Shown: one piece after another, positions 36,401 through 63,997 of the stretch
Position numbering within the stretch: position 1 is the first letter of the stretch
Layout: each line of letters opens with the position of its first letter
Assembly: GCA_963751345.1 (NCBI GenBank)
Contig: CAVVUS010000023.1
Span: 192,001-256,000 of the forward strand
From: an uncultured Chloroflexia bacterium
Lineage (GTDB): Bacteria > Chloroflexota > Anaerolineae > B4-G1 > SLSP01
Length of the DNA: 64,000 bases
Reading direction: 5' to 3'
Translations under genes and position numbers: made by a program
Notes under the pieces: model-generated
Told to the model about the DNA's origin: nothing
What the model saw: only the letters and a program-made list of their open reading frames with translations
Database searches by the model: none

Positions 36401-37251
36401 CCATTGACCCACGTGGCGATTTGGCTCCGAAACGGGGCGCGGTCTTTCTCATCGAGCAAGCCAAGCGGGTCCATTGCCAGCAGCTCCTCACGGCCGAAGC
36501 CGAGCATGTCGCACATGGCGTCGTTGACGGAGACGAATCTCTCGGCCGGAAAGTCGATTTCGCAGATGGCTACCGGCGCGTGCCTGACAAGCTCCCGATA
36601 ATTCCGTTCGGTCTCGAGACGCGCGGCCTCACTCTCGCGTAAGGCCGCTTCGGTCTTCCGCTGCTCACTGCTCTCGATGATCTGCCAGCGACCGGCCCGC
36701 TTGAGGAGGGCGAAACGATGGTTGCTCACCACATCCATAATCTCGGCTGCACCACACCTGTCGAGGCTGTAGGTACAGAGCGCCAGCATGCGATACTGGC
36801 CGATGACGCGGTTGACAGCCTCTTCGTAGGCGGTGAAGTCGTCCCAGTCCTCGTCCTCAAGCCAGAAGGTGTTGCCTGTCAAGCGTAGACCCTCGAAGCC
36901 TCGATCGAGGGCGCCCTGCAGTTTGTCGACCCAGCCCTGGAGCACGTCGTCGGCGTTGAAGCTGCCGGTGCGAGTGTACCACTGGGTATAGTCCAGGATC
37001 TCGATCTGGCCTCTGCGAAGATAGTCGTCGAGGGCAGGTTCCGCGGCCCCCAGGGCTGCCCGTGCCTCGTCCACTCCCAGGGGCTCGGAAGTAACCCACA
37101 TGCAAAACTCGTTGTCGGTCAGCCCCTGTCGGAAATAGGGCACCAGGATATCGATGAGGTCCTGCTTGTTCTGGTAGAACTGGCAGAGGTGGGTACCCCA
37201 CGCCGCGTTGCCAACGACGTCTATCCCCGTGCGCCTGAAGTGCTCTTCCAT
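33460..37251 (-). CDS. Cytoplasmic MEDS-multiPAS-GAF-PAS sensor histidine kinase (several frameshifts)
   Basis: WGTHLCQFY..GLRLTGN..LCTY (MEDS), repeated DITERKRAE PAC ends, GAF, SLAHEINNP H-box, QVFLNLVLNA, DSGLGI, GLGLGL. Confidence 0.85.
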
Positions 37252-37487
37252 CCGTGCCTCTATAACCTGGCTTTCGCGCCAATGCGGCGATGTCCTTGTT
37301 TCAAGGTGACGCCCGGCTCAGTATAAGCTTCTCCTACCAATAGGCCAGTGGCGAAGGTGGTTGGCCGAGGATCATATCCACCCATCTCTCCGGCGTCTCC
37401 TGCTATGCAAAGTACGGGATGCTCGCTATACTCGCGAGCGGCGGCGTGCGATTTCAATTATGTGGCAAGTGGGGAAGGAGATGGCAG

Positions 37488-37836
37488 ATGATGGACCCAA
37501 GCTATCTGGAGCACTATGAGGCGCTTCTGAGAATTCGCCATCGGGCAGCCCGAAGGATGCGACCTCACCCGCTGGGTATTCATTGTCTCTATGCTGGTGG
37601 TTCTTCGCGTCCGGCCTTCTTGGCCACCTACAAGGGCTAACGCTCTACGTAGCCACGCCTTCTCGTTGCGTTCGGTGCTGCCTACTGGTCGCGTGAAGTC
37701 GAAATCGCCACGACCGAGCATCTGTTCGAGCTTGTTGAGCCTCCGGAATCGAGATCGCTGGCCAAGGCACGTCCGGTTGGATCGCCGGCCACCGGGCTTG
37801 CTGCGTCCGCCGTCCAGATACTGCGCAATAGGCTAG
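37488..37836 (+). CDS. Possible small membrane protein, frameshifted
   Basis: SD AAGGAG then MMDPSYLEHYEALLRIRHRAARR. Hydrophobic pieces (WVFIVSMLVVL, FGAAYWSREVE) lie in neighbouring frames. Confidence 0.25.
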
Positions 37837-39978: not shown

Positions 39979-39996
39979 AGAGAGCTCCCAAGGATG

Positions 39997-40665
39997 CTAC
40001 CGAGTGCCGTTGACTGTGTTGGGACGCAGTGGTCTGGAAGGTACCAACCCGGCACGTACGGCGTAAAGTGCAGCTTGTGTGCGGCTGGACAGGTTCAGCT
40101 TCTCCAGTATGTGGCTGACGTGGGTTTTCGCGGTCTGCTCGGCGATGTGCAAAGTCCGGGAGATCTCCTTGTTTGACTTGCCCTGGGCAAGCAGCCGCAG
40201 TACATCCGTCTCGCGCTCAGTCAGCGAGTCCGCGCTCTGCTCGGGCGCGAAGAGCTCGTGCATCAGGCGTTCCGCGACCTGGGGGGCCAACTGCACCTGG
40301 CCGGCAGCGGCGGCCTTGATCGCACGGCACAGTTCGTCGGCTCGGGTATCCTTGAGTAGATAGCCGATGGCTCCCGCGCGCACGGCATCGGCGATCGTGG
40401 CTTGTTCCAGGACGCTGGTGAGCGCCACGACTTCGGTGTCGGGCATCTCGCTGCGGATGGCGACTGTTGCGGCAATGCCATCCATGACGGGCATAATCAG
40501 ATCCATCAGCACGACGTCAGGCGCAAGCTGGTGGGCGAGGCTGATAGCTTCCGCGCCGTTGCGCGCCTCGCCTACAATCTCTAGGTCCGGGTCTGAGCTC
40601 AGATACAGCCGCAATCCCTCCCGTACGACGCCGTGATCGTCCACAATCAATACACGGATCGGCAC
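39997..40665 (-). CDS. NarL/LuxR family response regulator
   Basis: VLIVDDHGVVREGL, PDVVLMD, GYLLKD, LTERETDVL, KTHVSHIL. Confidence 0.92.
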   Translation of the reverse strand: MPIRVLIVDDHGVVREGLRLYLSSDPDLEIVGEARNGAEAISLAHQLAPDVVLMDLIMPVMDGIAATVAIRSEMPDTEVVALTSVLEQATIADAVRAGAIGYLLKDTRADELCRAIKAAAAGQVQLAPQVAERLMHELFAPEQSADSLTERETDVLRLLAQGKSNKEISRTLHIAEQTAKTHVSHILEKLNLSSRTQAALYAVRAGLVPSRPLRPNTVNGTR

Positions 40666-47049: not shown

Positions 47050-48933
47050 GTTCAGGGCCACCAGGTGACCGCCCACAGAACACCGGATTCGCCCAGCTTG
47101 CCATCGCCGGTGCCGTCCCTGACCATTATGGCTAGGGTTTGCGTAACCCGGTCTGCTTCCACGAAGCGCGGTCTCCCTTCAGTCTAGAGGCGGTGCTGCA
47201 GTCTAGCCAAGAGGATCTTGAGCACCGGAGCGATGCTGTCTCTGCTTGTGCAGCAATGGCTGTGTCAGTCTTTGAATCGAACCAGCGAACGCTCTCTGGG
47301 AGGATGCCACCGAGCTAAGCCGATAGAGATAGCGCCGCACGCCATGTCGGACGAACATCGTCGGCGGGAGGCCCAGCGCAAACTCAACGACACGACGGTC
47401 GAGGAGCGGGAATCGATAGACAATGCCGTGCTCTGCTCCGTGGGATGCCCGAGATTCGGCGCGCCACGTTAGGTGCCCGCGCCGTAGCAGCGCGATCTGC
47501 GTGCCCCGAACGCTTGATCGAGCGACCTGACGGGGCAGTCGCCGATGCCGGCGCTCTGGAGGGCTTCTGCGAGTTCCGGCGACAGGAACAGAGAACACCT
47601 GCGCCAGTGATGCGATTCGATCCTCGGTTGGGCGTTGGCGAACCGCCCGGAGGACCAAGTTCGGGCATCATAGGGCGTAGCAACGTGGCAGCTACGGTGC
47701 GGACGGTCGCGCGATCCTGCACCTTGGCTTCCCGCCACAAGCGTACCCCACTTCCCGCGCCAGAACAAGTCCGCATAGAAACCACGGCCGTTGAAGGACG
47801 CGAGTTCGTCGCCGCCCCAGCCCGACAACAGAACACGGACCCCGGACTCGCTGGCCAGACGGTTCACGGTGAGCTCCATCCGGGCCGTGACGGCAGGACG
47901 CGTCGTGATATCGCGATCAAAGAGCGCAATCCAGTCGCCGGTCGTGGCCGCGGCATAGCGTATTGGCATGTCTTCCTGCCGGCTGATCTCGTCGACACGG
48001 TGCCGCTCATCGTCGAGGCCCAGTGAGGCTCCGGTCCTCAACCGGAGGCGACCAGGAGAAGCCAGCAGCTATATCTTTGCTTTGCGCCCGGAGCGCGCGT
48101 GCTGCCAGGACCGCTACCGAGGACGAGTCTAGGCCGCCGCTGATGTGCGCACCCACCGGGTAGGATGAGCGGACTCGGCATTCGACGGCTTTCGTCAGAA
48201 GTTCTCGCAACGCGTCAGCGTAGGCCGCGTCCGAGGGCAGCCGCACGGCTCGCGCATGCTCGGGATGCCAGTACTGCCACTGTTTGAGTCCGTCCTGGCC
48301 CACCGACAGGGCATGCGCCGGCGGGAGCTTCGCGACCTGAGCGTAGAAGCTGCGCGCCAGGTGCACGGTAGGGTTCTGGCTCATGTAACCAGCAAGGGTG
48401 GCAATGTCGAGCACTGGCTCGATGCCCTCGAAGGCAAGCATCCCTCTGACATCCGTTGCGAAGCAGAAGCCGGTCTGGGTTGCGTGGTAGTGGAAGGGCA
48501 TCACACCGAAGATGTCGCGCGCACAGAACAGCCTCCGCAGGCGCGCATCCCAGATGGCGAAGGCGAAGTCGCCCAGCAGGTGCTCCGGCGTCGCCTCGCC
48601 CCACTTCTGGTAGGCCAGCAGGATGAGCCGGCTGTCGGGCATCGCGGGCCTTCTTGCGGCGTCACCCGTAGCGCGCCGAAGAGCTCGTCGCGGTTGTCGA
48701 TCCGCGCATCGGCCGTGATCGTGAGCCCGGCGACAGCATCGTGGTAGGGCAGGCGCTCGACCTGCGACTCGGGGGTCACCCACATCATCTGGTGGCCCAG
48801 CGCGGCACTGCCCTCACACCAGACACCTGACCCATCCACGGCGTAGTGGCGCCATCGCGGCCATCGGTGCCGCCAGGTCGGCCGGGGAGGCGGGCCTGCC
48901 GTCGAATCGGACGATCCCGCAGATCGCGCTCAA
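47050..48933 (-). CDS. Lasso peptide cyclase C (asparagine synthase-like; several frameshifts, 3' end approximate)
   Basis: TTG start MSAICGIVRFDG (Ser in place of the Ntn Cys), TADARIDNR, LLGDFAFAIWD, ARDIFG, HISGGLDSSSV, LSGWGGDE, YRFPLLDRRVVEFALGLP. Confidence 0.85.
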
Positions 48934-49725: not shown

Positions 49726-50608
49726 CTAGAAGGCCGGGTAGCCGTCATCTGTCAGGTAGCCGAACCGGCGCATCACATCGCCGTGCGCTGCGATGATGCT
49801 CGCGACGTGGTCGGATGTGAGCGCCTCCCGCCACGTCCCCACCTCGCCCCTCCGGAAGAACGACGTCGCGAGCGGCATCTTCTCACCGAAGCCATGCTCC
49901 TGCTCCTGACGCCGTAGCTCGTGGAAGCTGGAGAAGGCCAGGGCTTTCTCAATACGCGCGACATCATCCTCAAGTCCCAGGTAACGGACAGCCCACGAAA
50001 GGTCTCCAGCGTCCGCGCCTTCATATCCTCGTAGCGCACGACGTGGACGTCAAGGGATGGCTCGTCGACCCAGCTGACGACGTGCCCGCTCCAGGTGAGC
50101 AGGCGCTGCCGCAGTTGGTTGTACAGCCGGTCCTCGCGATCGACAAAGGCGAATTCAGGGTCGTTCATCTTCGCGATCATCTTGTCCACCGAGGTTGCGC
50201 TGTGATGTGCAAAGGAGACGGCAACGTCCAGGGGGTTGCGGATGAGGTAGAGCACGCCCTTAGTGGCCTCCGACGGAACGAGGGGCGATCCGTCTGGGTG
50301 TGTAGGTGAAAGCGTCGTGGATCTTCAGGTAGAGGGTCTCACTGCTGTTAGCAGCGACCTGCACGGTAGACCCTAGGCCGGTAACGCTCGATCTCGTCCT
50401 GCGTCAGGTCCGAGGCCTCGACGCCCACGGCTTCGTCGAAGATGGTGCGGGCACTGGCGATGGGGCCCCCTGTATCCAGGCTGTTGATGTCGACGGGCTT
50501 GTCGCCATCGGCAAGGTAGTTGCTCAGGAAGGCGCGCATCCACGTGTTGCCCGACTTGGGGTAGGAGGCCAGCCAGACGATGCGGCGAGCGCCAGGGGCG
50601 TCAGTCAC
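49726..50608 (-). CDS. PAPS-dependent sulfotransferase (Sulfotransfer_1; frameshifted)
   Basis: WLASYPKSGNTW (5'-PSB loop), KIHDAF, YLIRNPLDVAVS (3'-PB), RYEDM, FFRRGEVGTWRE. Confidence 0.85.
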
Positions 50609-51774: not shown

Positions 51775-51830
51775 AGACCTTTGGGGTTTCCTTCGAGCGG
51801 TACCTGACTCGAAGGAAACCCCAAAGGTCT
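51775..51830. repeat. Long perfect inverted repeat (REP-like or terminator)
   Basis: 23-bp arms AGACCTTTGGGGTTTCCTTCGAG / CTCGAAGGAAACCCCAAAGGTCT with a 10-nt loop. Related copies at 11703, 23925 and 60310. Confidence 0.75.
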
Positions 51831-52601
51831 CAGCGCGGGCGAGGGGGTCCATTCCCGAGGATCTCTTCTGTCTTTGCACTAGCTGCCCTTCTCTCCTCCG
51901 CATACACGTGCCCCGCCATGATCGCGCGGACCTGCTTGGCGGTCGTGGCGCGGTGGAGCGCGCCCATCCGCTCGGCCTCCTCGTCGCGGAGCTTGCGGAC
52001 GTTGTCGAGGACGGCCTCCAGCTTGTCGGCCGGGAACTTGACGGCGCCGTTCTCGTCCATGTGGATGATCTCGCCGGGCGCGACGTCCATCCCCGCGACG
52101 TGGACCGGGACGTTGATGGCGTGGATCGCCTGGGGGCCGTGGCCCGGGCAGACGCCGCTTGTCAGGTACTGGAAGCCCATCGGGCGGATCTCGTCGATGT
52201 CGCGCGAGGGGCCGTTGGTGATCGCGCCGATGCAGCCCACGGCCTGCATCGCCGAGGTCATGTTGCCGCCGGACAAGCCCACCTTGCCCGCGATCTCGGG
52301 CGGGAAGCGCTGCTCGAAGACGAAGATCGTGGGCTTTGGGCGACGCCTCCATCGCGTCGATCACGTCCATGAACGAGAGCCCGGGGAAGTTGGGGTCGGG
52401 CAGGCCGTAGACGCAGGTCACGGCATAGCCGGCGATGGCGCCCATCTCCGGGTACCAGCACCGTAGCCGCTGGTCGGTGTACCAGTTCATCGTCCATGGG
52501 TTGTAGAGCCCCAGGCAGAGCGGGTTGCCGGGGTACGTCGCCACGACGTTGGTGATGGACGGCGTGTCGAATTCGCGAAGCGCGGTCAGTAGGTCAGTCA
52601 T
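51830..52601 (-). CDS. RraA/HMG-CHA aldolase family protein (frameshift near 52335)
   Basis: LREFDTPSITN, IAGYAVT, GGNM, GCIGAITNGPSRDIDE, VHVAGMDVAPGEIIHMDENGAV. Confidence 0.8.
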
Positions 52602-52624
52602 GTCAAACTCCTTTCAGTCGTTCC

Positions 52625-53796
52625 CTATCAGTTGTAGCTACGATCCTCATTCCGGCGCGGACTTTCTGATGAAGTCGAGGTCCAGCGTGATGCCCAGGCC
52701 GGGACGGTCGGGGATTGCGAGATAGCCATCCTCGAGCGCGAACTGCTCCACGGTGACGCCGTCGCGCAGCGGGTTGGGCGCTGCGATCGTATTCGAACCA
52801 AGGCTCTGCGGGGAAGCGGCGATCGGGGAAGTGGGGGAGCGCGGCGATGAGCTGCAGTGACGCCGCGAGACCGACGTTGGTACCCCAGACGTGGGGCACG
52901 ACAGGTAGGTTTGCGGCGCTCGCCATCGCCACAATGCGCATCATCTCGGTGAATCCGCCGGTGGCGCAGAGGTCGGGCTGCAGGATGTCGACCGCGCGCC
53001 GATTGATGAGGTGGCGGAAGCCAAAACGGGTGTATTCGCACTCGCCACCAGCGATGGGTACGTAGCCGGCCTGGCGCAGTTCAGCGTAGCCATCTATGTC
53101 CTCAGGTGGCACAGGTTCCTCGAACCACGTGAGATCGTACGGGGCAAGGTCGCGCGCCAGACGCAGCGCCTCGGGGGCGTTGTAGGCGTGGTTGGCGTCG
53201 ACCATAAGCGCCAACTCGTGGCCGATGGCATGGCGAATTGCGTGGACGTAGCGGAGGTCTGTGCGCGCGTCGTAGCCAATCTTCAGCTTCATGCCACGGA
53301 AGCCCTGCGATGCGTAACCTACGGCCTCTTCGACGAGGGCTTCGGCCACACTCGGCACGCCCTGGGGCTCGTAGAGGCCTGTGGCGTAGGCCTTCGCCCG
53401 TGTGCGGTAAGCCCCACCCAAGAGCTTGTGCACGGGAAGGCCCAGTGCCTTGCCCTTGATGTCCCAGAGCGCGATATCCACGGCGCTGATGGCCGATATT
53501 GTGAGGCCTTTCTGCCCCTGGTCGCGGGTCCAGTTGTAGAGCATGTCCCAGATGACGGACGTGTCGAGTGGGTCCAGCCCAAGGATCAGCGGGCCAAGCC
53601 CATGGTCGATCAGCCGGGCGACAATGGTCGAGGGGCCACCGAAGTAGAACGCTTCGCCGGCCCCCTGAATCCCGGCGTCGGTTTCCACGATGCAGATCGC
53701 AGTCTGGCGGCTGTTGCCGACGCGCTGCGACCATCCGAAGGCGTGGGTGCCCAGATCAGCCTGGAGGACATAGGTCCGGATGCCTGTGATGTGCAT
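52625..53796 (-). CDS. Mandelate racemase/MLE family protein, galactarolactone cycloisomerase-like (frameshift near 52780)
   Basis: FGWSQ, RDQGQKG, SAVDIALWDIKGK, YATGLY, KLKIG, DANHAY, WFEEP, PHVWGT, EYDRS. Confidence 0.82.
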
Positions 53797-53833: not shown

Positions 53834-56800
53834 TCAAGCAATCATCTCGCCGAGCTCGCGCATCTCGGCGACCACGTCGTCGGGGAGCACCGGCGGTTCG
53901 ACACCCAACAGCCTGCAGGTGAGGAGCTTTTCGGCGGTCGACTCGATGATGAAGGTGACGTCGGCAGCCCGGCGAACGCTGCTGCCCGCGACGACCAGCC
54001 CGTGATTTTGCATGAGCGCGGCAGAGCCGTGACCGCCGATTGCCGCGGCGACGGCGTCGGCCAGCTCGGTGGTGCCGGGTCTGATGAAGGGCACCACCGG
54101 CACATCGCCGAGAAACGCGGCCTCCGCCGAGATCGGCAAAAACCGCGTGCCGGTCAGCGCCATCAGCATGGCCTGCGGGGCATGCGAGTGGACGATGGCT
54201 TGGACGTCGGGCCGCTCACGGTAGATGGCGCAGTGGACGTGGCGCTCGCTGGAGGCGCTATAGCCGTTGTCGCTCAGGACGCGGCCCTGCAGGTCGATGC
54301 GTACGAGCATCTCCGGCTGCAGGGCTCCCTTGAAGACGGCGCTGGGCGTGATCCAGAGCTGATCCGGATTGCCGTCCACGCGCGCGCTGACATTTCCCCC
54401 TGTGGGTGTGATAAGCTGCGCCGCGTAGAGGTCGTGCACTGCTTCAAGGATGTCGTCCCGGACGTCGCCAACACGATGGGCGGGCGCCGGGCCTATCGCC
54501 GCGGATGTCGCGACGGCGGGTATGGGGGAGGGCGAGCCGGACCCGGTAGCAGCGGGGCCGCCGATCCGGGTGAGGTCGCCGGGATCTCCGACCGCCTCGC
54601 GCGCCGCCGTGTAGAGCTTCCCCAGGTCGCCCTGCAGCCGCTGGAAGGCCATCGCTTTGCTGGTGTCGCCGCTGAAGGAGAGCTTGCCGGTCATTGCTGC
54701 GCGCATACCGTTGACCTGGCCGGTGAAGATCCCGTCCAGGGTTGCCGCGCTCATCTTGAGGTGAACGTTCGCCGCCTGTGGCGGCGTGCCCATGCCGGCA
54801 GATACGCGTCCGCCGATGAAGCTGAGGTAGAAGTCCAGCGCCAGATCGCGCAGTGTGAACAACATCGTGACGTCCTTGCCCTTGGCGAAGTCGGCCATCT
54901 TGGGATCGGCGGCGACCGCGGCGGTGAAGCTATCCAGGATGCGCACAATCGTGTTCTCGGCGTCTCGGGATGCGGGCTGCGGCTCCGGCGCCGCTGCGGG
55001 CGTGCCACGGAATCGCCTGGCGAAGCGGCTGAACAGGCCTCGCTCAGTGGGCGCTGCCGGGTTACTCGCCGGTTCGCGTTCTGCTTGTGCCTGCGTCTGG
55101 AGTGCTGGGTCGACAGGGCCCGTCTGGGCGGAAACGGGACGTACGGCGGCCTCGCCAGCGTGTACCGTCCGCGCCTCTACCTGGAGATCGCTCACAGCCG
55201 GACCGGGGCCCGCGGCCAACCGGTTCAGCGTCTCTGTCGCAACGCTCCTCTCGCCGGTCCAGGAGAAGCCGGCCAAGGTCTCCGGGTTCAGGAGGTGGTG
55301 CGGCCTCTCGCCCGCTAACATGCGCTCGATCTCGGCGACGACGACCGCGCCTTGATGCGCAGCAACGTCGTGGGTGTTCCCGGCCACGTGCGGGGTAGCG
55401 ATCACGTTGGGGCAAGCGAGCAGCGGGTCGTCGGCGCCCGGCGGCTCGATGGAGAAGACGTCAAGTGCAGCGCCTCCCAGCTTCCCGGAGGTGAGAGCGT
55501 GCGCAAGCGCGCGGTCGTCGATCAGGGCTGCCCGCGCCGTGTTGATCAGGAACGCGCCATCCTTCATGTGGGCCAGGGCATCTTCGCCAATCATGCCAAG
55601 CGTCTCATTTGTCACCGGCGCGTGGAGGCTGACGAAGTCGCTCTCGGCAAGGAGCCGATCGAACGACACCTTGGTGGCCCCGAGCAGCGCGGCTTCCCCG
55701 GTGCTTACAGCCGGATCGGTTATGACGATGCGGGCGCCAAAGGGCAACAAGCGACGGATCACCCCTCGTCCTACCGCACCTGCGCCGACCAGGCCAACCG
55801 TCTTGTGCCATAGTTCGTCGCCCTGGAAGCTCTCGTGGGCCATGCCCATGCGCCCCATATCGCCGGCCTCACCACCGGGCCGGCGCAGAAAAGCCGTTGC
55901 CTCCGGCAATTTCCGAGCCAACATCAGCATGAGCGCCAGAGCCAGATCTGCCACCGCGTCGGCATTTCGCCCCGGCGTGTTGACGACAGGGACACCGGCG
56001 GCGGAGCACGCTGCGAGATCGACGTTGACAGGGTTTCCCCGGCACGCAAGGATCAGCCTCAGATCCGGCAGCTTCTGCAGAGCCTCTGCGTCGACCACGT
56101 CCACTTCGGTGACGAAGACATGGTATCCCTCCAGTGCCTCCCACAGGTCCTCACCGACCAGGAGGCGGCTCTCCTGGCGGTAGCTGGCGAAGGTGACATC
56201 ACCCAACTGCCGCAGCCGGTCCAGGGACGCGCCATCCACATCGGCGCTGACATAGATTCGGGGCCGGAAGCCGAAGGTGGGAGCCAGCTCCTGCTCATCG
56301 GGCTCCTGAAGGAGCTCCTGGACAATCGCCTCCGCCACGATTTCGTTGGTCTCGGCCTGTCCCTCGCGCATGTCCAGCCAGCGCGCATATCGTGACTCGT
56401 ACGCGTCCACCGACGCCGGCTGCGGCGTGTGGCTGCGGGTGACGGTGGTCAGCCTTTCCGCGCCGGCTGCCGCATCGCCGAATAACCCAGAGCCCACACC
56501 CGCGCAGATCGCAGCGCCCAATGCCGATGCCTCGGGAGGCCCCGCCACATTGATGGGGAGACGCGTCACGTCGGCGAGTATCTGGCCCCACAGCGCGCTG
56601 CGGCTCATGCCGCCGGCCAGCCGAAGCGTCTCGGGCGCTTGGCCTGAGACTTCCCGGACGCGTTCGAGGTTGAGCCGGACGGCGTAGGCCATGCCCTCCA
56701 GGACGGCTCGCGCCATCAGGGCCCTCCCAGGGGTGTCGCGGACCATGCTGGTAGCGGAGAAGGTCAAGTTATCCACAGGCAGACTGAGGTCCGAGGCGCT

Positions 56801-57847
56801 GAAAGCCCGTGCGCCCACTGTCGATGCGATGCCGCCTGCTCCGGGCGAAGCGTGAGCGGCCTCCGCGCAGAGGGCTGCGACGGGGTCCGGCAAACCGGCA
56901 TACCAGGCTGCGGCTACCCAGGCCAGAGTCTCGCCTGAGGATGCAGCGTTGCTCTCCAGTACGTAGAGACCCGGCACGACGTGCAGGTCGGTCCACAGAC
57001 GCTTCTTGGGATCGATGATCGGCCGGCTTGTCGTCAGCATGACGGAGGTCGTCGTTCCGGCTACAACCCCAAACTGACCTGATGTGGCGGCACCCGTCGC
57101 CAGGAGGGCACACTGCGTGTCGGCCCCGCCCGCAATCACGGGAGTTCCCGCCCGGAGGCCAAGATGCGAGGCTGCGGCATCGGTCAGCTCGCCGACGACC
57201 GCGCCTGCATCCACGAGCTGCGGGAAGATGCGGCGCGGCAGTCCGTACGAAGCCAGAAGATCCGCGGCCCACTCGCGGCTCTCCAGATCGAGCGCCATCG
57301 TCTCGGCTGCCTGCGACCGGGTGAAAGCCACGTTGCCCGTCAGCCTGTAGCCGAGCCAGTCACTGACGCTGAGCGTTGCACGGGCGTCCTTCAGCAGGCC
57401 GGGGTCGGTCTGGGCCAACCACATCAGGCGCACGGCGCTGAGGATGGGGTTGGGCCAATGCCCCGTGCGCCGGTAGATCTCGTCGCCTCTGTCGTTGCCG
57501 ATCTGTAGGGCCAAGATCCCCGCTCGGGCATCCATCGTAGGCGTCGCAAAGAGAACAGCGCCATCGCGGTCGATCAGGACCGTGCCGTGTCGCATGGAGG
57601 TTATGCCGATGCCGGCGACGTTATCCGGGGTGGCCCCCGCTTGCTGCATGGCCTCGCGACAGGTCTCGCCGACGACGCGCCAGACAAGATCCACGTCGAG
57701 ATCGAGGGCCCAGTGACCGTGCTGCGGCGCGCGAAGGTGCGTCCAGCTGCGGGTGCTCGTCGTGGATTGCCCAGTCTCCGTATCGATGACCAGGCACCGC
57801 CCGCCGCTTCCGCCCAAGTCGAATCCTACCAGGTACCGTGCGCTCAT
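53834..57847 (-). CDS. Multidomain fusion: FGGY carbohydrate kinase + D-2-hydroxyacid dehydrogenase + SCP2 + class II aldolase
   Basis: GFDLGGSGGR/GGADTQ/RAVLEG (FGGY); GLVGAGAVG/INTARA/LDVF/TPHVAG (2-HADH); NGMRAAMTGKLSFSGD (SCP2); GGNVSAR/SSERHVH/HSH/NHG (FucA-like). Confidence 0.9.
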   Translation of the reverse strand: MSARYLVGFDLGGSGGRCLVIDTETGQSTTSTRSWTHLRAPQHGHWALDLDVDLVWRVVGETCREAMQQAGATPDNVAGIGITSMRHGTVLIDRDGAVLFATPTMDARAGILALQIGNDRGDEIYRRTGHWPNPILSAVRLMWLAQTDPGLLKDARATLSVSDWLGYRLTGNVAFTRSQAAETMALDLESREWAADLLASYGLPRRIFPQLVDAGAVVGELTDAAASHLGLRAGTPVIAGGADTQCALLATGAATSGQFGVVAGTTTSVMLTTSRPIIDPKKRLWTDLHVVPGLYVLESNAASSGETLAWVAAAWYAGLPDPVAALCAEAAHASPGAGGIASTVGARAFSASDLSLPVDNLTFSATSMVRDTPGRALMARAVLEGMAYAVRLNLERVREVSGQAPETLRLAGGMSRSALWGQILADVTRLPINVAGPPEASALGAAICAGVGSGLFGDAAAGAERLTTVTRSHTPQPASVDAYESRYARWLDMREGQAETNEIVAEAIVQELLQEPDEQELAPTFGFRPRIYVSADVDGASLDRLRQLGDVTFASYRQESRLLVGEDLWEALEGYHVFVTEVDVVDAEALQKLPDLRLILACRGNPVNVDLAACSAAGVPVVNTPGRNADAVADLALALMLMLARKLPEATAFLRRPGGEAGDMGRMGMAHESFQGDELWHKTVGLVGAGAVGRGVIRRLLPFGARIVITDPAVSTGEAALLGATKVSFDRLLAESDFVSLHAPVTNETLGMIGEDALAHMKDGAFLINTARAALIDDRALAHALTSGKLGGAALDVFSIEPPGADDPLLACPNVIATPHVAGNTHDVAAHQGAVVVAEIERMLAGERPHHLLNPETLAGFSWTGERSVATETLNRLAAGPGPAVSDLQVEARTVHAGEAAVRPVSAQTGPVDPALQTQAQAEREPASNPAAPTERGLFSRFARRFRGTPAAAPEPQPASRDAENTIVRILDSFTAAVAADPKMADFAKGKDVTMLFTLRDLALDFYLSFIGGRVSAGMGTPPQAANVHLKMSAATLDGIFTGQVNGMRAAMTGKLSFSGDTSKAMAFQRLQGDLGKLYTAAREAVGDPGDLTRIGGPAATGSGSPSPIPAVATSAAIGPAPAHRVGDVRDDILEAVHDLYAAQLITPTGGNVSARVDGNPDQLWITPSAVFKGALQPEMLVRIDLQGRVLSDNGYSASSERHVHCAIYRERPDVQAIVHSHAPQAMLMALTGTRFLPISAEAAFLGDVPVVPFIRPGTTELADAVAAAIGGHGSAALMQNHGLVVAGSSVRRAADVTFIIESTAEKLLTCRLLGVEPPVLPDDVVAEMRELGEMIA

Positions 57848-58048
57848 TACCGATCCTTTCATGGCTGGGTATCGGCTCGCCAACATTGTGAGGCTACTTG
57901 GCATCCGGTCGTGCAGACGCCTGTGGAGGCACCCCGAAGGCAGGTGGTGCCCCTGACCTCGGCAAGATCTGACGCCCTAAGAGTGCGTTGTTCTCGTCAG
58001 GGTACTGCACGCCGCTGGTACGGTCAAGTGCCGGCGATTGGGTGTATA

Positions 58049-59333
58049 ATGGCTCGCACGCCTATGAACCCATACACACGCCTGACCATCATCGCGTTTC
58101 TCCTCTTCATGTCCAGAGGCATGACGGGCCCCTTGAGTTCGATCTACTGGCGATCCATGGGGGCAAGCTACCTGACCATCGGCCTGTTGGGCACGGTCAC
58201 GTCGATCACGGCGATTGTCTTCAGTTATCTCTGGGGACGCGCCTCCGATCGACTCGGACAGCGGAAGATCTTCCTGCTCGGCGGGTTGGGAGGGTTGGCC
58301 CTGTGCTATGTCCTGCTTGTCGGCGTCCGCGGGACGATTGTGCTCTTCCCGATCAGGGCCTTCACAGCGGTCTCACAGGCCGCGTACGACACTGCCAGCC
58401 TGGCGCTGATGGGAGATTGGCTCGAGCACCGGCAGCGCGAGCGTAGCCGCAACAGCGCGCAAGCCGGCGAGACGGCGGAGGCGCGGCGCGGGACTGCCGG
58501 ACGCAGGATGGGAACCTACCGGGGTCTGGCATCGCTGGGCTTTGGGCTGATGGCCTTCGTCTCGGGCACGATTGCCGATCGGTTCACACTTCGGACGCCC
58601 TTCGCGCTTGCGGCGGGATTTCTCACCATCGCACTGCTGCTGGGTCTGAGCGTCCGCGAGCCACCGGCAGACGAAGAATCGGACGCAGCAGGATCTGTCC
58701 GGCAAGGACCGGAGGCGTCGCGTCTCGGCGCTCTGAGGGTGCGACCCCATCGCCGCGCCTGCCTCTGCCGCCTCTGCTCGTCGCTGCACTGCTTTGGTCG
58801 CTGGTCGTTCGGCGCGGTCTATGCTGTGTGGGCCAACTATATGGTGGAGGAGATCGGGTATACCACCGCGCAGATGACCAGGCTGTGGTCCGTGGCCTCG
58901 CTCTCGGAGTTCCCGCTGATGATTCTCGCGGGCTGGCTCTCGGATCGCGTCGGCAGGTTGCCGATGCTGGCGATCGGGTTCCTGGCGTGGACCGTAGTCT
59001 TCGCGGGTTACCTCGTCGCTCCACAGATGCCCTTCATCGTCTTGGTGCAGTTGACGCGGGGATTCGCCTTCTCGGCCTACACCGCCACGGCGATGACCTA
59101 TGCTGCCGAAGTCAGGGCGCGGGCAGAACGCGGGCGGGTCTCGGGGATGTACGGCACGGCGGGTGCACTTGGCTCGATCATGGGCTCATCGTTGGGCGGC
59201 GCCGTGACGCAGTTCGCCGGGTTCCGCACGCTTGATCGGCGCCTGCGCCGGCATCATCTTCGCCGGGTGCGCTCTACCTGGGCAGCGTCGCCCTGCGTTT
59301 CGCGTCGAGTGTCAGGGCTGCCCTGTCAGAAGC
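58049..59333 (+). CDS. MFS transporter (frameshifts near 58740-58800 and 59230)
   Basis: WGRASDRLGQRK and AGWLSDRVGR motif A, multiple hydrophobic segments, ERGRVSG. End approximate. Confidence 0.85.
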
Positions 59334-60127
59334 GTCAGCGCAGTAAGCAGCGTCCGTCCGAAAGGCGTGACGCGGAACGCCAGGAGCTTGGGCGCCAGGC
59401 CGGGCGGACGTTCGGCGTAGTCAGGTTCGATGATGCCAAAGTCGGCGGCGACGGTGATCACAATCCGGCGTACGGCCCACCGGAGCAGATCGGTGTGATC
59501 GCCGGTCCACTCCTCCTCCCACTCCAGACCCGTACGGCCGGCCAGAGTATCTGCAAAGGCGGGGAAGGGGATGCGCCGGCCCGGCGGAATGGCGGCCAGC
59601 CGCGAGAGGGTGATCCGTGTGAAGCCGCGGGGTAGATAGTCGCCCAGACCCGTCAGTGGGTAGGCGATCATCCAGTTGGTCTCAAACCACCAGATCGTGA
59701 GCAGCTTCAGCACCTGGTGCGGGCTGTCGGCCTCCAGAAACGCTTCGCCCGCGGGGGTCAGCCGCCAGCGCGCTCCCTGGGGTGTGGTCAGCAGCCCTCC
59801 TACCTCCGCGATGCTGTGCAGGAAGTAGAGTGGCCAGAGGTTGTACTCTGTGCGCAGTTGGTATACCTGATCTCCAATCTTCTCCTCGAGCTCAGGGGGA
59901 TTCACGAACTCCGCGGTGACCTGGCGGATCATCTTGAGCGGCATGTTCCCGGTGCTGCGCGTGCCCACGACCTTGTGTTCCTCGACGAAGTGCAGCAGCG
60001 TGACCATATCCCGGCGTAGGGCGAGTGTATCGGCGGCTTCGGTCGTAGTGTCGTCGCCGAAGTCTTCCGCCCATTCCTGGTATTGCCAGTCCTGCCTGGC
60101 TGCAATGCGCTCCAGTGGATCTTCCAT
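59312..60127 (-). CDS. Hypothetical protein
   Basis: MEDPLERIAARQ.. with SD GGAG. TRSTGNMPLK, WRLTPAGE and FRVTPFG are winged-helix-like ends. Confidence 0.55.
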   Translation of the reverse strand: MEDPLERIAARQDWQYQEWAEDFGDDTTTEAADTLALRRDMVTLLHFVEEHKVVGTRSTGNMPLKMIRQVTAEFVNPPELEEKIGDQVYQLRTEYNLWPLYFLHSIAEVGGLLTTPQGARWRLTPAGEAFLEADSPHQVLKLLTIWWFETNWMIAYPLTGLGDYLPRGFTRITLSRLAAIPPGRRIPFPAFADTLAGRTGLEWEEEWTGDHTDLLRWAVRRIVITVAADFGIIEPDYAERPPGLAPKLLAFRVTPFGRTLLTALTLLTGQP

Positions 60128-60496
60128 AGCATCTCCCGTACTTCCTCGTGTGGTCCCGATCTGCGATGTCCCAGACCGGGCGAAGTATACGCCGAAAGCT
60201 GCCCGGGAACAGGGGTCCGTTGAGGGCAGGCATCGAGGCGTAGTCGCGTGCGAGAGCTTTGTCAGGGGTAGCTTACGAAACCTTGCGAAGGTGCGGACCG
60301 AGGGGATGTCCCCAAAGGTCCAAAGTCCCGAGGCCGATCCTCTTGCGAGGCCTTCGGGCTGACGTATACTGGCACGCGTGACATCCGCGGTGGTTGCATC
60401 GGATGAGGGCCGACGGGCTTCGGGGATTGGCTCCATTGCGCCGGACTACATCAGCCGATGGGCACAAATCTGGTACTGGAAAGGACGGTACATACG

Positions 60497-61523
60497 ATGA
60501 CGGTCTATCCAGCGGATCAGTGGGCGCGTGTGGCGCCCGAAGATGCCGGTTTCGATGTGGGGAGGCTGGTGCTCGCCAGCCAGTGGCTGGATGACCACGC
60601 GCCCGAACGTGGGTATCGTGTGGCCATCGTCCGTGACGGCTACCTTGTGTTCCAAGTGAATGTCGGGTTCACGCCGGACGAGCGCCTGCCGATCGCATCG
60701 GCTGCGAAGTCGATCTTCGGCAACGTGCTGGGCATTGCCGTCCACGAAGGGCGTCTCTCCTCTGCCCGACGCGCCCGTGGTCGACCTTTATCCGGAGATG
60801 ATGGATGTACCGGAGGGCACGGGGCCCAAGGAGGGCCGGTATGCCTTCCCCAAGGATCGGGCGGTGACCTATCGCCAGTTGATCTCGAACACATCCGGCT
60901 ATATGAAGCCCGGTGAGGAACCCGGCAAGGTCTTCAACTACCAGACCTTTGGCATGAACGTGCTGACGCACGCCGTCGCGACTGCCTATGGCCTCTACAA
61001 TCTCGAGGACCCCGAGGGGTCGCCGGGATTCGCGGCGCTGGTGCGGGACAAGGTAGCCGACCCCATTGGTGCCCGGTGGGCCTACACCCTGTCGAACTTC
61101 GCACTGCAGGAGCGCGCGCGGCTGCCCATCTTTGGGTATTACTGCCAGATCCACACCGACCCGCTGGACTTGGCCCGCGTCGGCTGGCTATGGTGCAATT
61201 GGGGGCGCTGGGGCAATCGCCAGGTGGTTCCGGAGGCCTGGATGCGCGAGTCGGTGAAGGTCAATCGCGACTTGATGGTGAATGCGCCGCACGAACAACA
61301 GCAGTACGGCTATGGCATCTGGACAAACGAGCAGGGCGTGCTCTGGCCCGACCTGCCGCGCGACGGCTTTACGGCCAGCGGCGCAGGGGGGCATTACGCA
61401 ACCGTCTTCCCGGGTCAGCGCCTGGTCATCGTTCAGAATCCCGGCCCCTATCTGGCGGGAGAGGCCGCCAGCCGCGCCAATGTCGAGTTCCTGGAGTTAG
61501 TGTTGGCGGCGCTTGTGGGATAA
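60497..61523 (+). CDS. Beta-lactamase-family serine hydrolase (frameshift near 60765)
   Basis: ASAAKS (SxxK), PGKVFNY, DLARVG, YGYGIW, ASGAGG. Confidence 0.82.
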
Positions 61524-61551
61524 GGCGAGACATGCTGAAAGGAGACGAAGC

Positions 61552-62542
61552 GTGAGTCAAAAGGTCTACGTGACCCGAGAGGTACCGGATGCGGGTCTCA
61601 CTATGGTTCTGAAGGCCTGTGATGCTGAGGTGTGGGAGGGGGGACTTCCGGTCCCGCGTGAGGTACTCCTGGAGAAGGTCGCGGATGTCGATGGGCTCTA
61701 TTGCCTGCTCACGGAGCGGGTGGATGACGAGCTGCTGGACGCCGCGCCCAACCTGCGCGTGGTGAGCAACTACGCCGTCGGGTTACAACAACATCGATGT
61801 CGCCGCGTGTACGGCGCGGGGCATCCCCGTCGGCAACACGCCCGGCGTCCTGACGGATACCACAGCCGATTTCGCCTTCACGCTGTTGGTGGCTGCCGCG
61901 CGGAGAGTGACCGAGGCTGCGGCCTACGTGCTCGATGGAAAATGGCAGACCTGGGGGCCGAAGCTGCTGCTGGGCGTGGACATTTACGGCGCGACGTTGG
62001 GCGTCATCGGCTATGGGCGGATAGGACAGGCGGTAGCTCGCCGCGCCCGGGGATTCGACATGCGCGTGCTGTACCACGATCCCTATGCCGCCGGAGGCTC
62101 CGGGGCGTCCGATCCCGACGGCCCGAGAGCCGTCGACCTGAACACCTTGCTCGCCGAGTCCGATTTTGTGTCGGTCCACGTCCCGTTGACCGAGGAGACG
62201 CACCACCTGATCGGCGCGGACGAGCTGGGCAAGATGAAGGCGACCGCGATACTGGTCAACACATCGCGCGGGCCGGTCGTCGATCCCGACGCCCTGACTG
62301 ATGCCCTCGCGTCTCATCGTATTGCTGCTGCGGCGCTCGACGTCACCGAACCGGAGCCCCTGCCCGTGGATCACGCGCTCCTCGCACTGCCCAACTGCAT
62401 TGTCACCCCCCACATCGCCAGCGCCAGCGTCGCGACGCGCAACAAGATGGCCGTGATCGCTGCAGAGAATCTCCTGGCGGGCCTGGAGGGGCGGCGGATG
62501 CCACACTGCGTGAACCCTGAGGTGTATACCTCGGGCGAATAG
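61552..62542 (+). CDS. Glyoxylate reductase / D-glycerate dehydrogenase (frameshift near 61785)
   Basis: KVYVTRE, NYAVG, NTPGVLTDTTAD, GVIGYGRIG, VNTSRG, LDVTEPEP, TPHIASA. Confidence 0.88.
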
Positions 62543-62563
62543 GGGCCTGGTACCTGGGGTGAT

Positions 62564-62717
62564 GGATATGCGCCTCGGACGGCGGATATGCACCTCGGAC
62601 GGCGGATATGCGCCTCGGACGGCGGGCTCGCGCCTCGGACGGCGGTGCGCCTCGACGGCGGTCGCGCCTCGGACGGCGGTGCGCCTCGGACGGCGGGCTC
62701 GCGCCTCGGATGGTGGC
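62564..62717. repeat. Intergenic tandem repeat, 8 imperfect units of 17-20 bp
   Basis: Core GCGCCTCGGACGGCGG followed by ATAT, GCTC, TC or T. No unique spacers. Confidence 0.9.
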
Positions 62718-62740
62718 GTGCGCCCCAAAGGCTGCCCAGC

Positions 62741-62768
62741 TTGACACGATGCCTTTCGCCCATAGAAT
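62741..62768 (+). promoter_or_regulatory. Sigma70 promoter
   Basis: TTGACA (62741-62746), 16-nt spacer, TAGAAT (62763-62768). Confidence 0.6.
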
Positions 62769-62818
62769 GGCATTATCTTGTTGATCTCGATAGTGGCATT
62801 CATTGAAAGGACGGCATC

Positions 62819-63997
62819 ATGGATATCTTCATGAAGTGTGGGGAGTTCACCGACGCAGATAGTGCCCGCGAGGCCGGTCTCTATCCCTACTTCATTCCCC
62901 TGACGAACAACGAGGGGACGGAGGCGGTGATCGGGGATCATCACCTGATCATGATCGGCTCCAACAACTACCTGGGCCTCACCGTGCACCCTAAGGTTCG
63001 AGAGGCGGCGATGGCTGCGATCAAGACGTATGGGACGAGCTGTACCGGCTCTCGCTTTCTCAACGGCACCCTGGAGCTGCACCTTGAACTCGAACGACGG
63101 TTGGCCGAGTGGTTGGGCGTGGGACGCGCGCTGGTCTTCAGCACCGGCTACCAGGTGAACGTCGGCACGATCTCGGCCGTGGTGGGTCGCGACGATTTCG
63201 TCATCACGGACAAGGATGACCACGCCAGCATCATCGACGGGTGTCGCCTCTCCTACGGCACGATGAAGCGGTTCCCACACAACGATCTCGAGGCGCTGGA
63301 TCGGGTGCTGGCTTCGCTGCCGGAGGAGAGCGGTAAGCTGGTCGTCGTGGACGGCCTTTTCAGCATGGGAGGCGACATCGCGCCGCTGCCTGATCTGGTC
63401 GCGGTCTGCAAGAAGTACGAGGCGCGCCTCATGGTGGATGATGCTCACGCGATGGGCGTGCTCGGCGGCGGGCGCGGCACGGCGGCAGACTTCGGGCTGA
63501 CCGACGGCGTGGATTTGATCATGGGTACGTTCAGCAAGTCGTTCGCCTCGCTGGGCGGCTTCATCTCCGGTGATGCCGATGTCGTCGACTACATCCAGCA
63601 TCACGCGCGCTCGCTCATCTTCAGCGCCAGCATCCCGCCGGCCAACGCGGCAGCGGCGATGGCCGCCCTGGAGATCATGCAGGACGAGCCCGAGCGCATT
63701 CAGCGACTGATCGACATCGGCGCGACCATGCGCAGAGAGTACCGGGCGTTGGGATTCAACATCGGTGGCAGCCAGACACCGATTATCCCCATCATCATCG
63801 GTGATGACGACCGGACGCTGAAGTTCTGGAAGGCGCTTTTCGATGCCGGCGTCTACACGAACCCGGTCCTGTCGCCTGGGGTGCCTGCAGGGATGCAGTT
63901 GCTCCGCACGAGCTATATGGCCACGCACACCGACGAGCAGTTGGACAAGGTGCTGTCCACCTTCGAGCGCGTCGGGAAGCAATTGGGTGTGATTTAG
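62819..63997 (+). CDS. PLP-dependent alpha-oxoamine synthase, serine palmitoyltransferase-like
   Basis: GLYPYF, GSNNYLGL, YGTSCTGSRFLNGTL, DHASI, VDDAH, MGTFSKS, IFSAS, MATH. Confidence 0.85.
   Translation: MDIFMKCGEFTDADSAREAGLYPYFIPLTNNEGTEAVIGDHHLIMIGSNNYLGLTVHPKVREAAMAAIKTYGTSCTGSRFLNGTLELHLELERRLAEWLGVGRALVFSTGYQVNVGTISAVVGRDDFVITDKDDHASIIDGCRLSYGTMKRFPHNDLEALDRVLASLPEESGKLVVVDGLFSMGGDIAPLPDLVAVCKKYEARLMVDDAHAMGVLGGGRGTAADFGLTDGVDLIMGTFSKSFASLGGFISGDADVVDYIQHHARSLIFSASIPPANAAAAMAALEIMQDEPERIQRLIDIGATMRREYRALGFNIGGSQTPIIPIIIGDDDRTLKFWKALFDAGVYTNPVLSPGVPAGMQLLRTSYMATHTDEQLDKVLSTFERVGKQLGVI

Follow-up and report, generated by a model that had tools for sequence, protein, structure and literature searches.

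The locus studied here raises a simple question: what does a single polypeptide do that carries, in this order, a carbohydrate kinase, a 2-hydroxyacid dehydrogenase, an SCP2 domain and a class II aldolase? The gene lies on the minus strand at positions 53834..57847 of a stretch of 64,000 nucleotides (the window) from an uncultured Chloroflexia bacterium (contig CAVVUS010000023.1, positions 192,001 to 256,000). Our tentative answer, which we put somewhat short of an even chance, is that it encodes a cytoplasmic multifunctional enzyme that would phosphorylate a terminal CH2OH group, oxidise the adjacent CHOH and split the product by a retro-aldol reaction into dihydroxyacetone phosphate (DHAP) and an aldehyde, with the SCP2 domain holding the hydrophobic tail of the substrate. 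We infer the reaction order, the DHAP product and the amphiphilic nature and identity of the substrate from the domains, their conservation and the neighbouring genes, as set out below.

The open reading frame (ORF) runs without interruption over 53834..57904 and has 1356 codons counted from the outermost ATG (ORF list and translation). Residue numbers below refer to this longest translation, P0001, which starts at ATG 57904. The likely true start is the in-frame ATG at 57847 (M20 of P0001), because an AAAGGA ribosome-binding motif precedes it, because the N-termini of homologues fall at M20, and because the closest relative, P0002 (98% identical), is 1337 aa long. In an alignment of 24 sequences (A1; mean column identity 53%), the start column of M20 (MSARYL...) was shared by 16 of the 23 homologues, and only P0004 had an upstream extension. 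From ATG 57847 there are 1337 codons and a TGA stop at 53834-53836.

We assign the first domain (residues 24-533; 56306..57835, minus strand, as are all parts of the gene) to the FGGY carbohydrate kinase family, as an LsrK-like member outside the LsrK equivalog. Pfam FGGY_N matched residues 24-268 (E 2e-44, 152.3 bits, cut-off 28.8) and FGGY_C residues 280-470 (E 2e-25, 90.3 bits, cut-off 27). The top NCBIfam match, over residues 21-533, was the autoinducer 2 (AI-2) kinase model NF008187, with 288 bits where the cut-off is 528. Among PDB chains LsrK (5ya0) came first by far, with E 5e-76 and an alignment spanning 493 residues; the next FGGY kinase followed at 2e-34. FGGY kinases have a catalytic Asp in GGxDxQ, and glycine-rich motifs that bind ATP. 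In the 24 aligned sequences D262 and Q264 (GGADTQ), G431 and G432 were invariant, and D29, G31 and R36 were at least 90% conserved. LsrK is a stand-alone enzyme of the lsr operon. In contrast, the kinase here is fused to three more domains, and we saw none of the other lsr genes in its surroundings.

The second domain (residues 547-877; 55274..56266) is placed by its sequence in the NAD-dependent D-isomer-specific 2-hydroxyacid dehydrogenase (2-HADH) family, with the Arg/Glu/His triad. Both Pfam models scored above their gathering cut-offs: 2-Hacid_dh at residues 581-873 (E 1e-14, 54.4 bits) and 2-Hacid_dh_C at residues 656-841 (E 9e-54, 182 bits). The top PDB chains were D-3-phosphoglycerate dehydrogenase (PGDH) of Mycobacterium tuberculosis (1ygy/3ddn, 2e-49), McyI (8e-46) and glyoxylate reductases (~1e-43). 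The GxGxxG motif (G707/G709/G712), D730, R791, E820 and H839 were invariant in the 24 sequences, and the catalytic and NAD residues aligned with their counterparts in PGDH 3ddn. The domain thus has the fold, the NAD motif and the Arg/Glu/His set in common with PGDH, glyoxylate reductases and McyI. It differs from them in a family-specific insert, PGGEAGDMGRMG, in the motifs TEVD, CRGNPVN and TPGRNA, which are invariant within the family, and in scores far below all equivalog cut-offs of NCBIfam (217 bits against 454 for D-3-phosphoglycerate dehydrogenase, TIGR01327; 189.8 against 455 for glyoxylate reductase, NF009714).

The dehydrogenase is followed by linker 1 (residues 878-984; 54953..55273), which is Pro/Ala-rich and variable in length and sequence (alignment A1, columns 901-1200), and then by the SCP2 domain (residues 985-1109; 54578..54952). 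The Pfam core of this domain, PF02036, spans residues 1004-1090 (E 2e-13, 50.8 bits, cut-off 21.3). An AlphaFold (AF2) model of the SCP2 and aldolase parts had a mean predicted local distance difference test score (pLDDT) of 82.7. In it the SCP2 part (model residues 1-125) is an alpha/beta domain of five strands with flanking helices, with pLDDT mostly 80-93. Its look-alikes in the Atlas were stand-alone SCP2 clusters (scores 0.92-0.93), which gave no functional lead. Sequence matches in the PDB were weak (4jgx at 4e-4; alkylsulfatases at ~0.02), and the part also weakly matched Pfam Alkyl_sulf_C. Linker 2 (residues 1112-1145; 54470..54571) is Pro/Ala/Ser-rich and predicted to be disordered, with pLDDT below 50 at model residues 128-161. 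The model gave no fixed arrangement of SCP2 and aldolase (predicted TM-score 0.58, disordered linker) and no hint of a lipid channel.

Some relatives of ~1475 aa hold a tandem pair of SCP2 domains (A1 columns 1000-1500: proteins P0009, P0014, P0019, P0100 and P0116; loci L014, L037, L040 and L041). The pairs occur at two different positions in different lineages, which suggests that the duplication arose more than once. An SCP2-type domain on catalytic domains is known from peroxisomal multifunctional enzyme 2. The sec-alkylsulfatases (PDB 4av7, 2yhe) also have an SCP2-type domain appended to a catalytic part; the catalytic partners differ from those here. We found no description of a kinase or an aldolase as the partner of SCP2 in the literature searched, which left out most subscription journals (as it did for the other literature searches below).

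We also considered a membrane-targeting amphipathic helix in linker 1 and dropped it as evidence. The candidate, GLFSRFARRFRG (window 54990-55030, residues ~959-970), is a basic-hydrophobic G-L-F-S-R-F-A-R-R-F-R-G stretch that was seen by eye in 14 of the 24 aligned sequences. A loose pattern for it was found in 7 of the 50 loci having both landmarks (L002, L008, L020, L035 and L054 among the carriers) and gave 30 matches elsewhere; of 2000 shuffled versions, 264 had a helical hydrophobic moment at least as large.

The last domain (residues 1146-1356; 53837..54469) is, as judged from its sequence, a FucA/DrdA-type, metal-dependent member of the class II aldolase/adducin (FucA) family. Pfam Aldolase_II (PF00596) matched residues 1151-1325 (E 5e-46, 157.5 bits), and the PDB sequence matches 6btd, 7x78 and 6voq all came at ~1e-20. 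With Foldseek, the model superimposed on 6btg/6btd, the DHAP-bound deoxy-sugar-phosphate aldolase of Bacillus thuringiensis (presumably DrdA), with a TM-score of 0.91 and a root-mean-square deviation of 1.4-1.5. Superpositions on FucA and 6btg together ranged over 0.88-0.91, and those on structures of YgbL, which we take to be a 3-oxo-tetronate-4-phosphate decarboxylase, over 0.85-0.89. E1220, H1239 and H1301 were invariant in the 24 sequences, H1241 was at least 90% conserved, and these four aligned with the metal and acid-base set of FucA; N1171, S1218 and T1186 were conserved. The domain thus has ~30% identity, the metal/acid-base residues and the phosphate-binding Asn/Ser/Thr in common with FucA and 6btd/6btg. 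Tyr113 of FucA has a functional role; unlike in FucA, the corresponding position here is not a tyrosine, the domain sits behind an SCP2 domain, and it scores below every equivalog cut-off, those for specific members of the family such as AraD/SgbE epimerase, OtnC decarboxylase and FucA included. The best NCBIfam models were NF005123 (107.8 bits, cut-off 251) and 3-oxo-tetronate-4-phosphate decarboxylase, NF043034 (98.9 bits, cut-off 250). The sequence does not tell aldolase, decarboxylase and epimerase reactions apart.

The roles of the conserved kinase, dehydrogenase and aldolase residues are established for these families, and from their conservation all three enzymes look active. The architecture is a new multifunctional combination of known enzyme families, in which each domain falls below the cut-off of every characterised equivalog. 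These results confirm what an initial annotation of this DNA by inspection had observed and partly support its interpretation. It had described a single uninterrupted ORF of 4 kb and four domains in the order given here, and the Pfam boundaries match its nucleotide ranges within ~60 nt. The in-frame linkers that it saw at the junctions are both Pro/Ala/Ser-rich and weakly conserved in A1. It had likened the kinase to LsrK, which is indeed the best NCBIfam and PDB match in spite of the missed cut-off, and its FucA-like aldolase with E/H/H/H ligands corresponds to E1220, H1239, H1241 and H1301. It had also likened the kinase to YoaC and the dehydrogenase to YoaD of Bacillus subtilis; the one paper found with both names, PMC2885750, offers a guess at their function and no data.

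We found that the fusion is genuine, as the initial annotation had held. A whole-length search gave 517 matches at E<=1e-3 among 8000 scored candidates. FGGY, 2-HADH, SCP2 and Aldolase_II were all found by Pfam on 120 of the 120 matches listed, which were 1291-1493 aa long. We also scanned genomes, one per species, with patterns that lie in the dehydrogenase and aldolase parts. The patterns matched at 512 places; a relative of some kind is encoded at 445 of them, not all claimed to be four-domain, and 80 of the 445 were fetched as loci. The match extended from residue 40 or before to residue 1352 or beyond in 65 of the 80 loci; 14 of the other 15 run into the end of the locus, and in L047 the gene starts inside the locus. 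All four domain types were present in each of five ORFs scanned, from Bellilinea caldifistulae GOMI-1, Mycobacterium ostraviense, M. persicum, Ca. Roseilinea and a Myxococcota metagenome-assembled genome; the first three of these are cultured isolates. By label, 50 of the 80 loci are from Chloroflexota, 4 from Mycobacterium, 20 from Myxococcota, Deltaproteobacteria, Bacteriovoracaceae, Desulfobacterales or Proteobacteria, and 6 from others. The Mycobacterium carriers are four species of the M. kansasii group (M. persicum, attenuatum, ostraviense and innocens; L043, L050, L051 and L065).

Four independent domain hits in one frame, together with hundreds of full-length homologues, exclude chance. 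It is also scarcely conceivable that separate genes were joined because an assembly prone to indels had lost their stops or shifted their frames. There are grounds for asking: at least three nearby genes of the window have frame disruptions when compared with L002, an 84%-identical locus, and the L002 copy of the four-domain gene is itself frameshifted in the aldolase part. However, errors break ORFs and would not hold 1337 codons open with conserved motifs flanking the linkers, and the same continuous architecture recurs across the homologues and in isolate genomes. We therefore rejected an artefact. The architecture had been unfamiliar to the initial annotation, and no paper describing it was found in the literature searched. 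It is nonetheless widespread and already present in public databases, in hundreds of copies whose automatic names disagree with one another ('autoinducer 2 kinase', 'L-ribulose-5-phosphate 4-epimerase', 'NAD(P)-dependent oxidoreductase').

We compared the four-domain protein with relatives of other composition. We searched 1.84 billion cluster representatives with the dehydrogenase-SCP2-aldolase part as query and checked the architectures returned by Pfam. About 17 clusters had all four domains. FGGY and 2-HADH alone formed proteins of 888-898 aa in 5 clusters (that of P0152 has two members of 898 aa). SCP2 and aldolase alone formed proteins of 371-479 aa in 10 clusters (that of P0153 has six members of 424-458 aa, on contigs of 13-33 kb), and a form with two SCP2 domains and the aldolase also exists. 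Two clusters (560 and 576 aa) had 2-HADH and aldolase without SCP2, and one protein of 746 aa had FGGY and aldolase. Part of the short forms are incomplete: P0146 carries the label partial, and P0164 falls into one cluster with a protein of 1298 aa. Others, such as those of the P0153 and P0152 clusters, keep a consistent length on long contigs. The three enzymes are thus found fused in every pairing, which is strong circumstantial evidence that the three modules serve one pathway. The earlier proposal that they act on one substrate is plausible. SCP2 travels with the aldolase and is dispensable in some relatives. The order of the reactions cannot be read from these fusions, since all three pairings occur.

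The neighbourhood of the gene in other genomes gave further leads. We called ORFs in the 80 loci and the window (n=81), clustered them and named them by Pfam, NCBIfam and PDB matches; 52 loci had at least 3 kb upstream. An aldehyde-oxidising enzyme on the same strand within 8 kb was found in 21 of the 81 loci, and in 14 of the 38 loci having at least 5 kb on both sides. It was an aldehyde:ferredoxin oxidoreductase (AOR) in 13 loci, a classical aldehyde dehydrogenase (ALDH) in 4, and in 4 more, all Mycobacterium, an atypical 573-aa ALDH with only a partial aldehyde-dehydrogenase match. An HpnA-like extended short-chain dehydrogenase/reductase (SDR) was present in 15 loci. Nine of these, all Chloroflexota, passed TIGR03466, 'hopanoid-associated sugar epimerase', at 415.6-440.6 bits (cut-off 367.65). 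L077 (323.3) and the four Mycobacterium loci (122-155) scored below this cut-off, and a second copy in L006 did not score at all. Class-III aminotransferases, closest to PigE (NCBIfam 428 bits; PDB 4ppm, 7e-91), were found in 12 loci, GntR/UTRA regulators in 12 and M28/M20 peptidase-like proteins in 9. AMP-binding ligases occurred in 11 loci, with steroid-24-oyl-CoA synthetase as the best model (705.8 bits, cut-off 750). P450 and TetR genes occurred in 7 loci each, both mainly of the Myxococcota type, in which the 705.8-bit ligase is also found. A SorC/DeoR/LsrR-type regulator lay directly upstream in 4 loci (210.8 bits with the DeoR model, 156.2 with LsrR).

In L006 and L019 a tight operon holds GntR, AOR, aminotransferase, peptidase-like, HpnA-like and four-domain genes; L030 has the same without AOR. 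A rearranged operon with a major facilitator superfamily (MFS) gene occurs in L061 and L063, and partial versions in eight further loci. L005 has, two genes downstream of the four-domain gene, a beta-glucuronidase (13873-16023; GH2; 6xxw, 7e-139) with its own C-terminal SCP2 domain. L018 has a close relative of it in the same position (12867-15017), for which Pfam listed no SCP2. The Mycobacterium loci have a lipid-type cluster of an AMP-binding enzyme, a PlsC-type acyltransferase, SDRs, the 573-aa ALDH-like protein and WS/DGAT. A DegV gene lies upstream in L038, and thiolase and acyltransferase genes lie downstream in L009. The initial annotation took SCP2 to hint at a lipid-linked substrate; the lipid-type neighbours in other genomes lend this some support, and none was found in the window itself.

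Based on these results we propose the following route. The three catalytic modules would work one after another on the polyol or ketose-like end of a single substrate. The LsrK-type kinase would phosphorylate a terminal CH2OH with ATP. The PGDH-like dehydrogenase would then oxidise the neighbouring CHOH with NAD+, giving an intermediate of the ketose-1-phosphate type, which the FucA/DrdA-type metal aldolase would split into DHAP and an aldehyde. A separately encoded AOR or ALDH would oxidise the aldehyde, and in some lineages the resulting acid might be activated by an acyl-CoA ligase. The SCP2 module would hold the hydrophobic part of the same substrate, whose sugar-like end would be fed into central metabolism. 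An aldolase of the FucA type needs a ketose-1-phosphate, whose phosphate the kinase and whose ketone the dehydrogenase could provide. We favour cleavage to DHAP and an aldehyde because aldehyde-oxidising enzymes of three non-homologous types are found nearby and because the nearest matches of the aldolase include DHAP-forming aldolases. That the rest of the substrate is hydrophobic is suggested by the SCP2 domain, which is duplicated in some relatives and stays with the aldolase, by the glucuronidase with an SCP2 of its own and by the neighbours of lipid type. Kinase before dehydrogenase is colinear with the domain order and agrees with PGDH, which acts on a CHOH beside a CH2-O-phosphate. Dehydrogenase before kinase is equally possible, and oxidation followed by phosphorylation, the order given in the initial annotation, is thus no better supported than kinase first.

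Kinase-then-lyase routes to aldehydes are familiar from the DHAP shunt (5-deoxyribose, methylthioribose), from sphingosine kinase, sphingosine-1-phosphate lyase and fatty aldehyde dehydrogenase, and from erythritol kinase and dehydrogenase. These too phosphorylate the polar end, make or use a carbonyl, split off a small phosphorylated unit and oxidise the aldehyde. The likeness is one of logic only, since they use separate proteins, with MtnK/DrdK kinases, a pyridoxal-phosphate lyase and an FAD dehydrogenase. A closer precedent is RhaEW/YuxG, a bifunctional rhamnulose-1-phosphate aldolase and lactaldehyde dehydrogenase validated in Chloroflexus and B. subtilis (PMC3870299). Here a class II aldolase and an NAD-dependent dehydrogenase that serve one pathway are joined in a single protein, in Chloroflexi too. 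In RhaEW, however, RhaW is an SDR that oxidises the aldehyde product, and there is no kinase or SCP2; in the four-domain protein a 2-HADH fold lies upstream of the aldolase.

Several observations weigh against the DHAP-and-aldehyde route on an amphiphilic substrate. An aldehyde-oxidising gene was not within reach in 60 of the 81 loci, and the neighbourhoods are heterogeneous, many without an informative neighbour. The aldolase domain is about equidistant from 6btd/6btg, FucA and YgbL. Relatives without SCP2 (P0173, P0184 and P0195) indicate that this domain is not indispensable to the chemistry. The invariant R791 normally binds the carboxylate beside the oxidised carbon, so that a polyol phosphate would be an unusual substrate for a 2-HADH, and the invariant TEVD stands where PGDH has the arginine of 'VRS'. 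The operons include an MFS importer, which would suit a membrane lipid less well than a molecule that is small or amphiphilic. In the window itself the context is one of sugar and sugar-acid genes (enolase superfamily, RraA-like, MFS, UxuA, glycosidases), and Pfam found no hopanoid, sterol, sphingolipid or other lipid genes among 18 ORFs round the gene and 44 ORFs at 1-48 kb.

Much of this would suit a soluble sugar-acid route, which we consider unlikely, though the most credible of the alternatives. An aldonic or tetronic acid would be phosphorylated at its omega-hydroxyl and oxidised at C2, and an OtnC/YgbL-type decarboxylase/isomerase would yield DHAP and CO2, with SCP2 in a structural or oligomerisation role. 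PdxB and PGDH oxidise phosphorylated hydroxy acids, PGDH and glyoxylate reductases are the best relatives of the dehydrogenase, and this domain keeps the full carboxylate-type set R791/E820/H839. The decarboxylase model comes near the best aldolase-family score (98.9 and 107.8 bits), and YgbL structures fit almost like FucA. The neighbours in the window (the enolase-superfamily gene 37 nt downstream, the RraA-like gene, the MFS gene and a second 2-HADH) point the same way, as do PfkB and 2-keto-3-deoxy-6-phosphogluconate aldolase genes upstream in L014. However, the acid-sugar neighbours were found only in the window and its close relative L002 among the 81 loci, and both the decarboxylase and the PGDH scores are far under their cut-offs (98.9 against 250; 217 against 454). 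In the tetronate pathway, moreover, a 2-oxo product needs isomerisation to a 3-oxo acid before decarboxylation. This route also leaves unexplained the SCP2 domain, its duplication and its link to the aldolase in split forms, as well as the aldehyde-oxidising neighbours of three unrelated families. The recurrence of the latter disfavours decarboxylation, which the initial annotation had offered as an alternative to aldol cleavage; its 'sugar or sugar acid' as the substrate is not supported.

It is also possible, at a distinctly lower probability, that the protein is anabolic and remodels lipids. The aldolase would then condense DHAP with a lipid aldehyde, or the modules would act on glycerol-type head groups, to make a polar lipid or metabolite. 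The Mycobacterium loci, where the AMP-binding enzyme, the PlsC-type acyltransferase and SDRs accompany a WS/DGAT wax-ester/triacylglycerol synthase, would fit, as would the similarity of the neighbouring aminotransferase to PigE, a biosynthetic aldehyde transaminase, and the link of the HpnA-type SDR family to hopanoid biosynthesis clusters (PMC12583986). A kinase on a free hydroxyl, however, has no obvious place in an aldol condensation, AOR and ALDH suit removal of an aldehyde, and the Chloroflexota operons, with a GntR/UTRA or SorC/DeoR-type repressor first and an importer, have the usual catabolic layout. Least probable among the functional readings, and in our view very unlikely, is processing of AI-2. 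Here the kinase would act on 4,5-dihydroxy-2,3-pentanedione or another small diketone of this kind, the dehydrogenase would reduce a carbonyl, and the aldolase would split the deoxy-pentulose phosphate so formed into DHAP and acetaldehyde; the latter would suit AOR or ALDH. The LsrK-likeness of the kinase over its 493 aligned residues, far above that of other solved FGGY kinases (5e-76 against 2e-34), speaks for this, together with the LsrR-type regulators directly upstream in 4 loci and a best aldolase match that cleaves a 5-deoxy-pentulose phosphate. Against it, the LsrK cut-off is widely missed (288 against 528), none of the neighbours examined was homologous to LsrF, LsrG or a Lsr transporter, and SCP2 and the lipid-type neighbours go unexplained.

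Within the preferred route to DHAP and an aldehyde, the substrates could be membrane lipids, in the first place bacteriohopanepolyols, whose terminal polyol derives from a sugar and whose head group the family would clip off. We regard this more specific proposal as improbable; the SCP2 domain and the aldolase's best structural match agree with it. The side chain of bacteriohopanetetrol is a ribose-derived terminal polyol. Bacteriohopanetetrol would be phosphorylated at C35 and oxidised at C34 to a 5-substituted 5-deoxy-ribulose-1-phosphate. A DrdA-like cleavage would give DHAP and a C32 hopanoid aldehyde, which AOR or ALDH would turn into C32 hopanoic acid. The aminotransferase might act like HpnO in reverse, on aminotriol, and the HpnA-type SDR on ribosylhopane aldehyde, while the M28/M20 hydrolase could remove N-acyl groups and the SCP2-bearing glucuronidase strip glycosides. 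Another such substrate could be an amino-triol lipid like phytosphingosine. C32 dominates the hopanoic acids of early diagenesis, and geochemists ascribe C32 hopanoic acids and hopanols to early diagenesis. The HpnA-type SDR (nine loci), the ornithine/PigE-like class-III aminotransferase (twelve) and AOR recall the last steps in the biosynthesis of the hopanoid side chain. A survey of 2025 (PMC12583986) describes HpnO as an aminotransferase-family protein that makes aminotriol from ribosylhopane, gives no established enzyme for making bacteriohopanetetrol from ribosylhopane and lists the function of HpnA as unknown. The gene context behind the hopanoid proposal occurs in a minority of the loci, and no hopanoid gene was found in the window. 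Nothing on enzymatic cleavage of the hopanoid side chain was found in the literature searched.

In the window, the four-domain gene is followed, 37 nt past its stop, by an enolase-superfamily (MR/MLE) gene that resembles acid-sugar dehydratases (52603..53796, minus strand; Pfam MR_MLE_N/C). It has AAGGAG before its ATG at 53796 and is probably co-transcribed with the four-domain gene. The best model for its L002 orthologue is arabinonate dehydratase, at 253 bits against a cut-off of 650. Next comes an RraA-like aldolase/decarboxylase gene (51830..52601, minus strand; Pfam), split over two frames as two overlapping ORFs; its L002 orthologue is intact and 242 aa long. In the other direction, an intergenic region of 216 nt (57848..58063, by reading of the sequence) separates the four-domain gene from a divergent MFS transporter gene (58064..59635, plus strand; Pfam MFS_1), which encodes 523 aa from ATG 58064 and is 87% identical to its L002 orthologue. 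The RraA-like gene (51830-52601), a beta-lactamase-fold gene (60458-61555) and a glyoxylate-reductase-like 2-HADH gene (61513-62542) are each broken up into two or three frames that overlap, whereas their L002 orthologues are intact. These breaks are either assembly indel errors or recent pseudogenes.

Other features of the window lie further away. An alpha-oxoamine synthase gene (62819-63997, plus strand) gave the sole lipid-type match and belongs to the set of neighbours seen in the window and L002 only; it scored 522.7 bits with the serine-palmitoyltransferase model (cut-off 640), above its BioF and Kbl scores, and is possibly a sphingoid-base-type synthase in a Chloroflexota genome. Antisense to it and to the 2-HADH-like gene runs an ORF of 757 codons (61709-63982, minus strand) with no Pfam match; rather than a gene, it is most probably a shadow ORF that owes its length to the high GC content. 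There are four MR/MLE genes in the 64 kb, all on the minus strand (7393-8493, 29948-31432, 32205-33533 and 52603-53796), and a UxuA-like gene at 26823-27803; this density is unusual. An ORF at 19549-21903 (plus strand) encodes a 785-aa protein with a glycoside hydrolase family 2 part and a C-terminal GNAT acetyltransferase domain. Pieces of an asparagine-synthase-type enzyme and of a sulfotransferase (48007-48783 and 49773-50255, minus strand) may come from a small biosynthetic cluster that has decayed or was wrongly assembled; for the asparagine-synthase-type enzyme, the L002 orthologue scored 116 bits on a lasso-peptide cyclase model (cut-off 525). PAS/GAF sensor histidine-kinase ORFs stand in series with a LuxR-type response regulator at 33463-40665 (minus strand), and several of the kinase ORFs look like parts of larger genes and may mark more frame breaks.

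The four-domain protein appears to put a whole short pathway on one chain: activation with ATP, oxidation with NAD and cleavage of a C-C bond, together with a lipid-binding module. Knowing its substrate would show what is done by the products of hundreds of database entries that at present carry the wrong name (AI-2 kinase, epimerase or generic oxidoreductase), and would test whether the 2-hydroxyacid-dehydrogenase fold can handle a polyol phosphate that is not an acid. If the proposal for hopanoids were true, this would be the first catabolic pathway for the hopanoid side chain and an enzymatic source of C32 hopanoic acids and hopanols. It would then matter to the question of how molecular fossils of a major class change before they are buried, and would give HpnA its first biochemical context. 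More generally, the family might show how bacteria that are abundant and degrade necromass gain access to the polar ends of lipids that resist breakdown.

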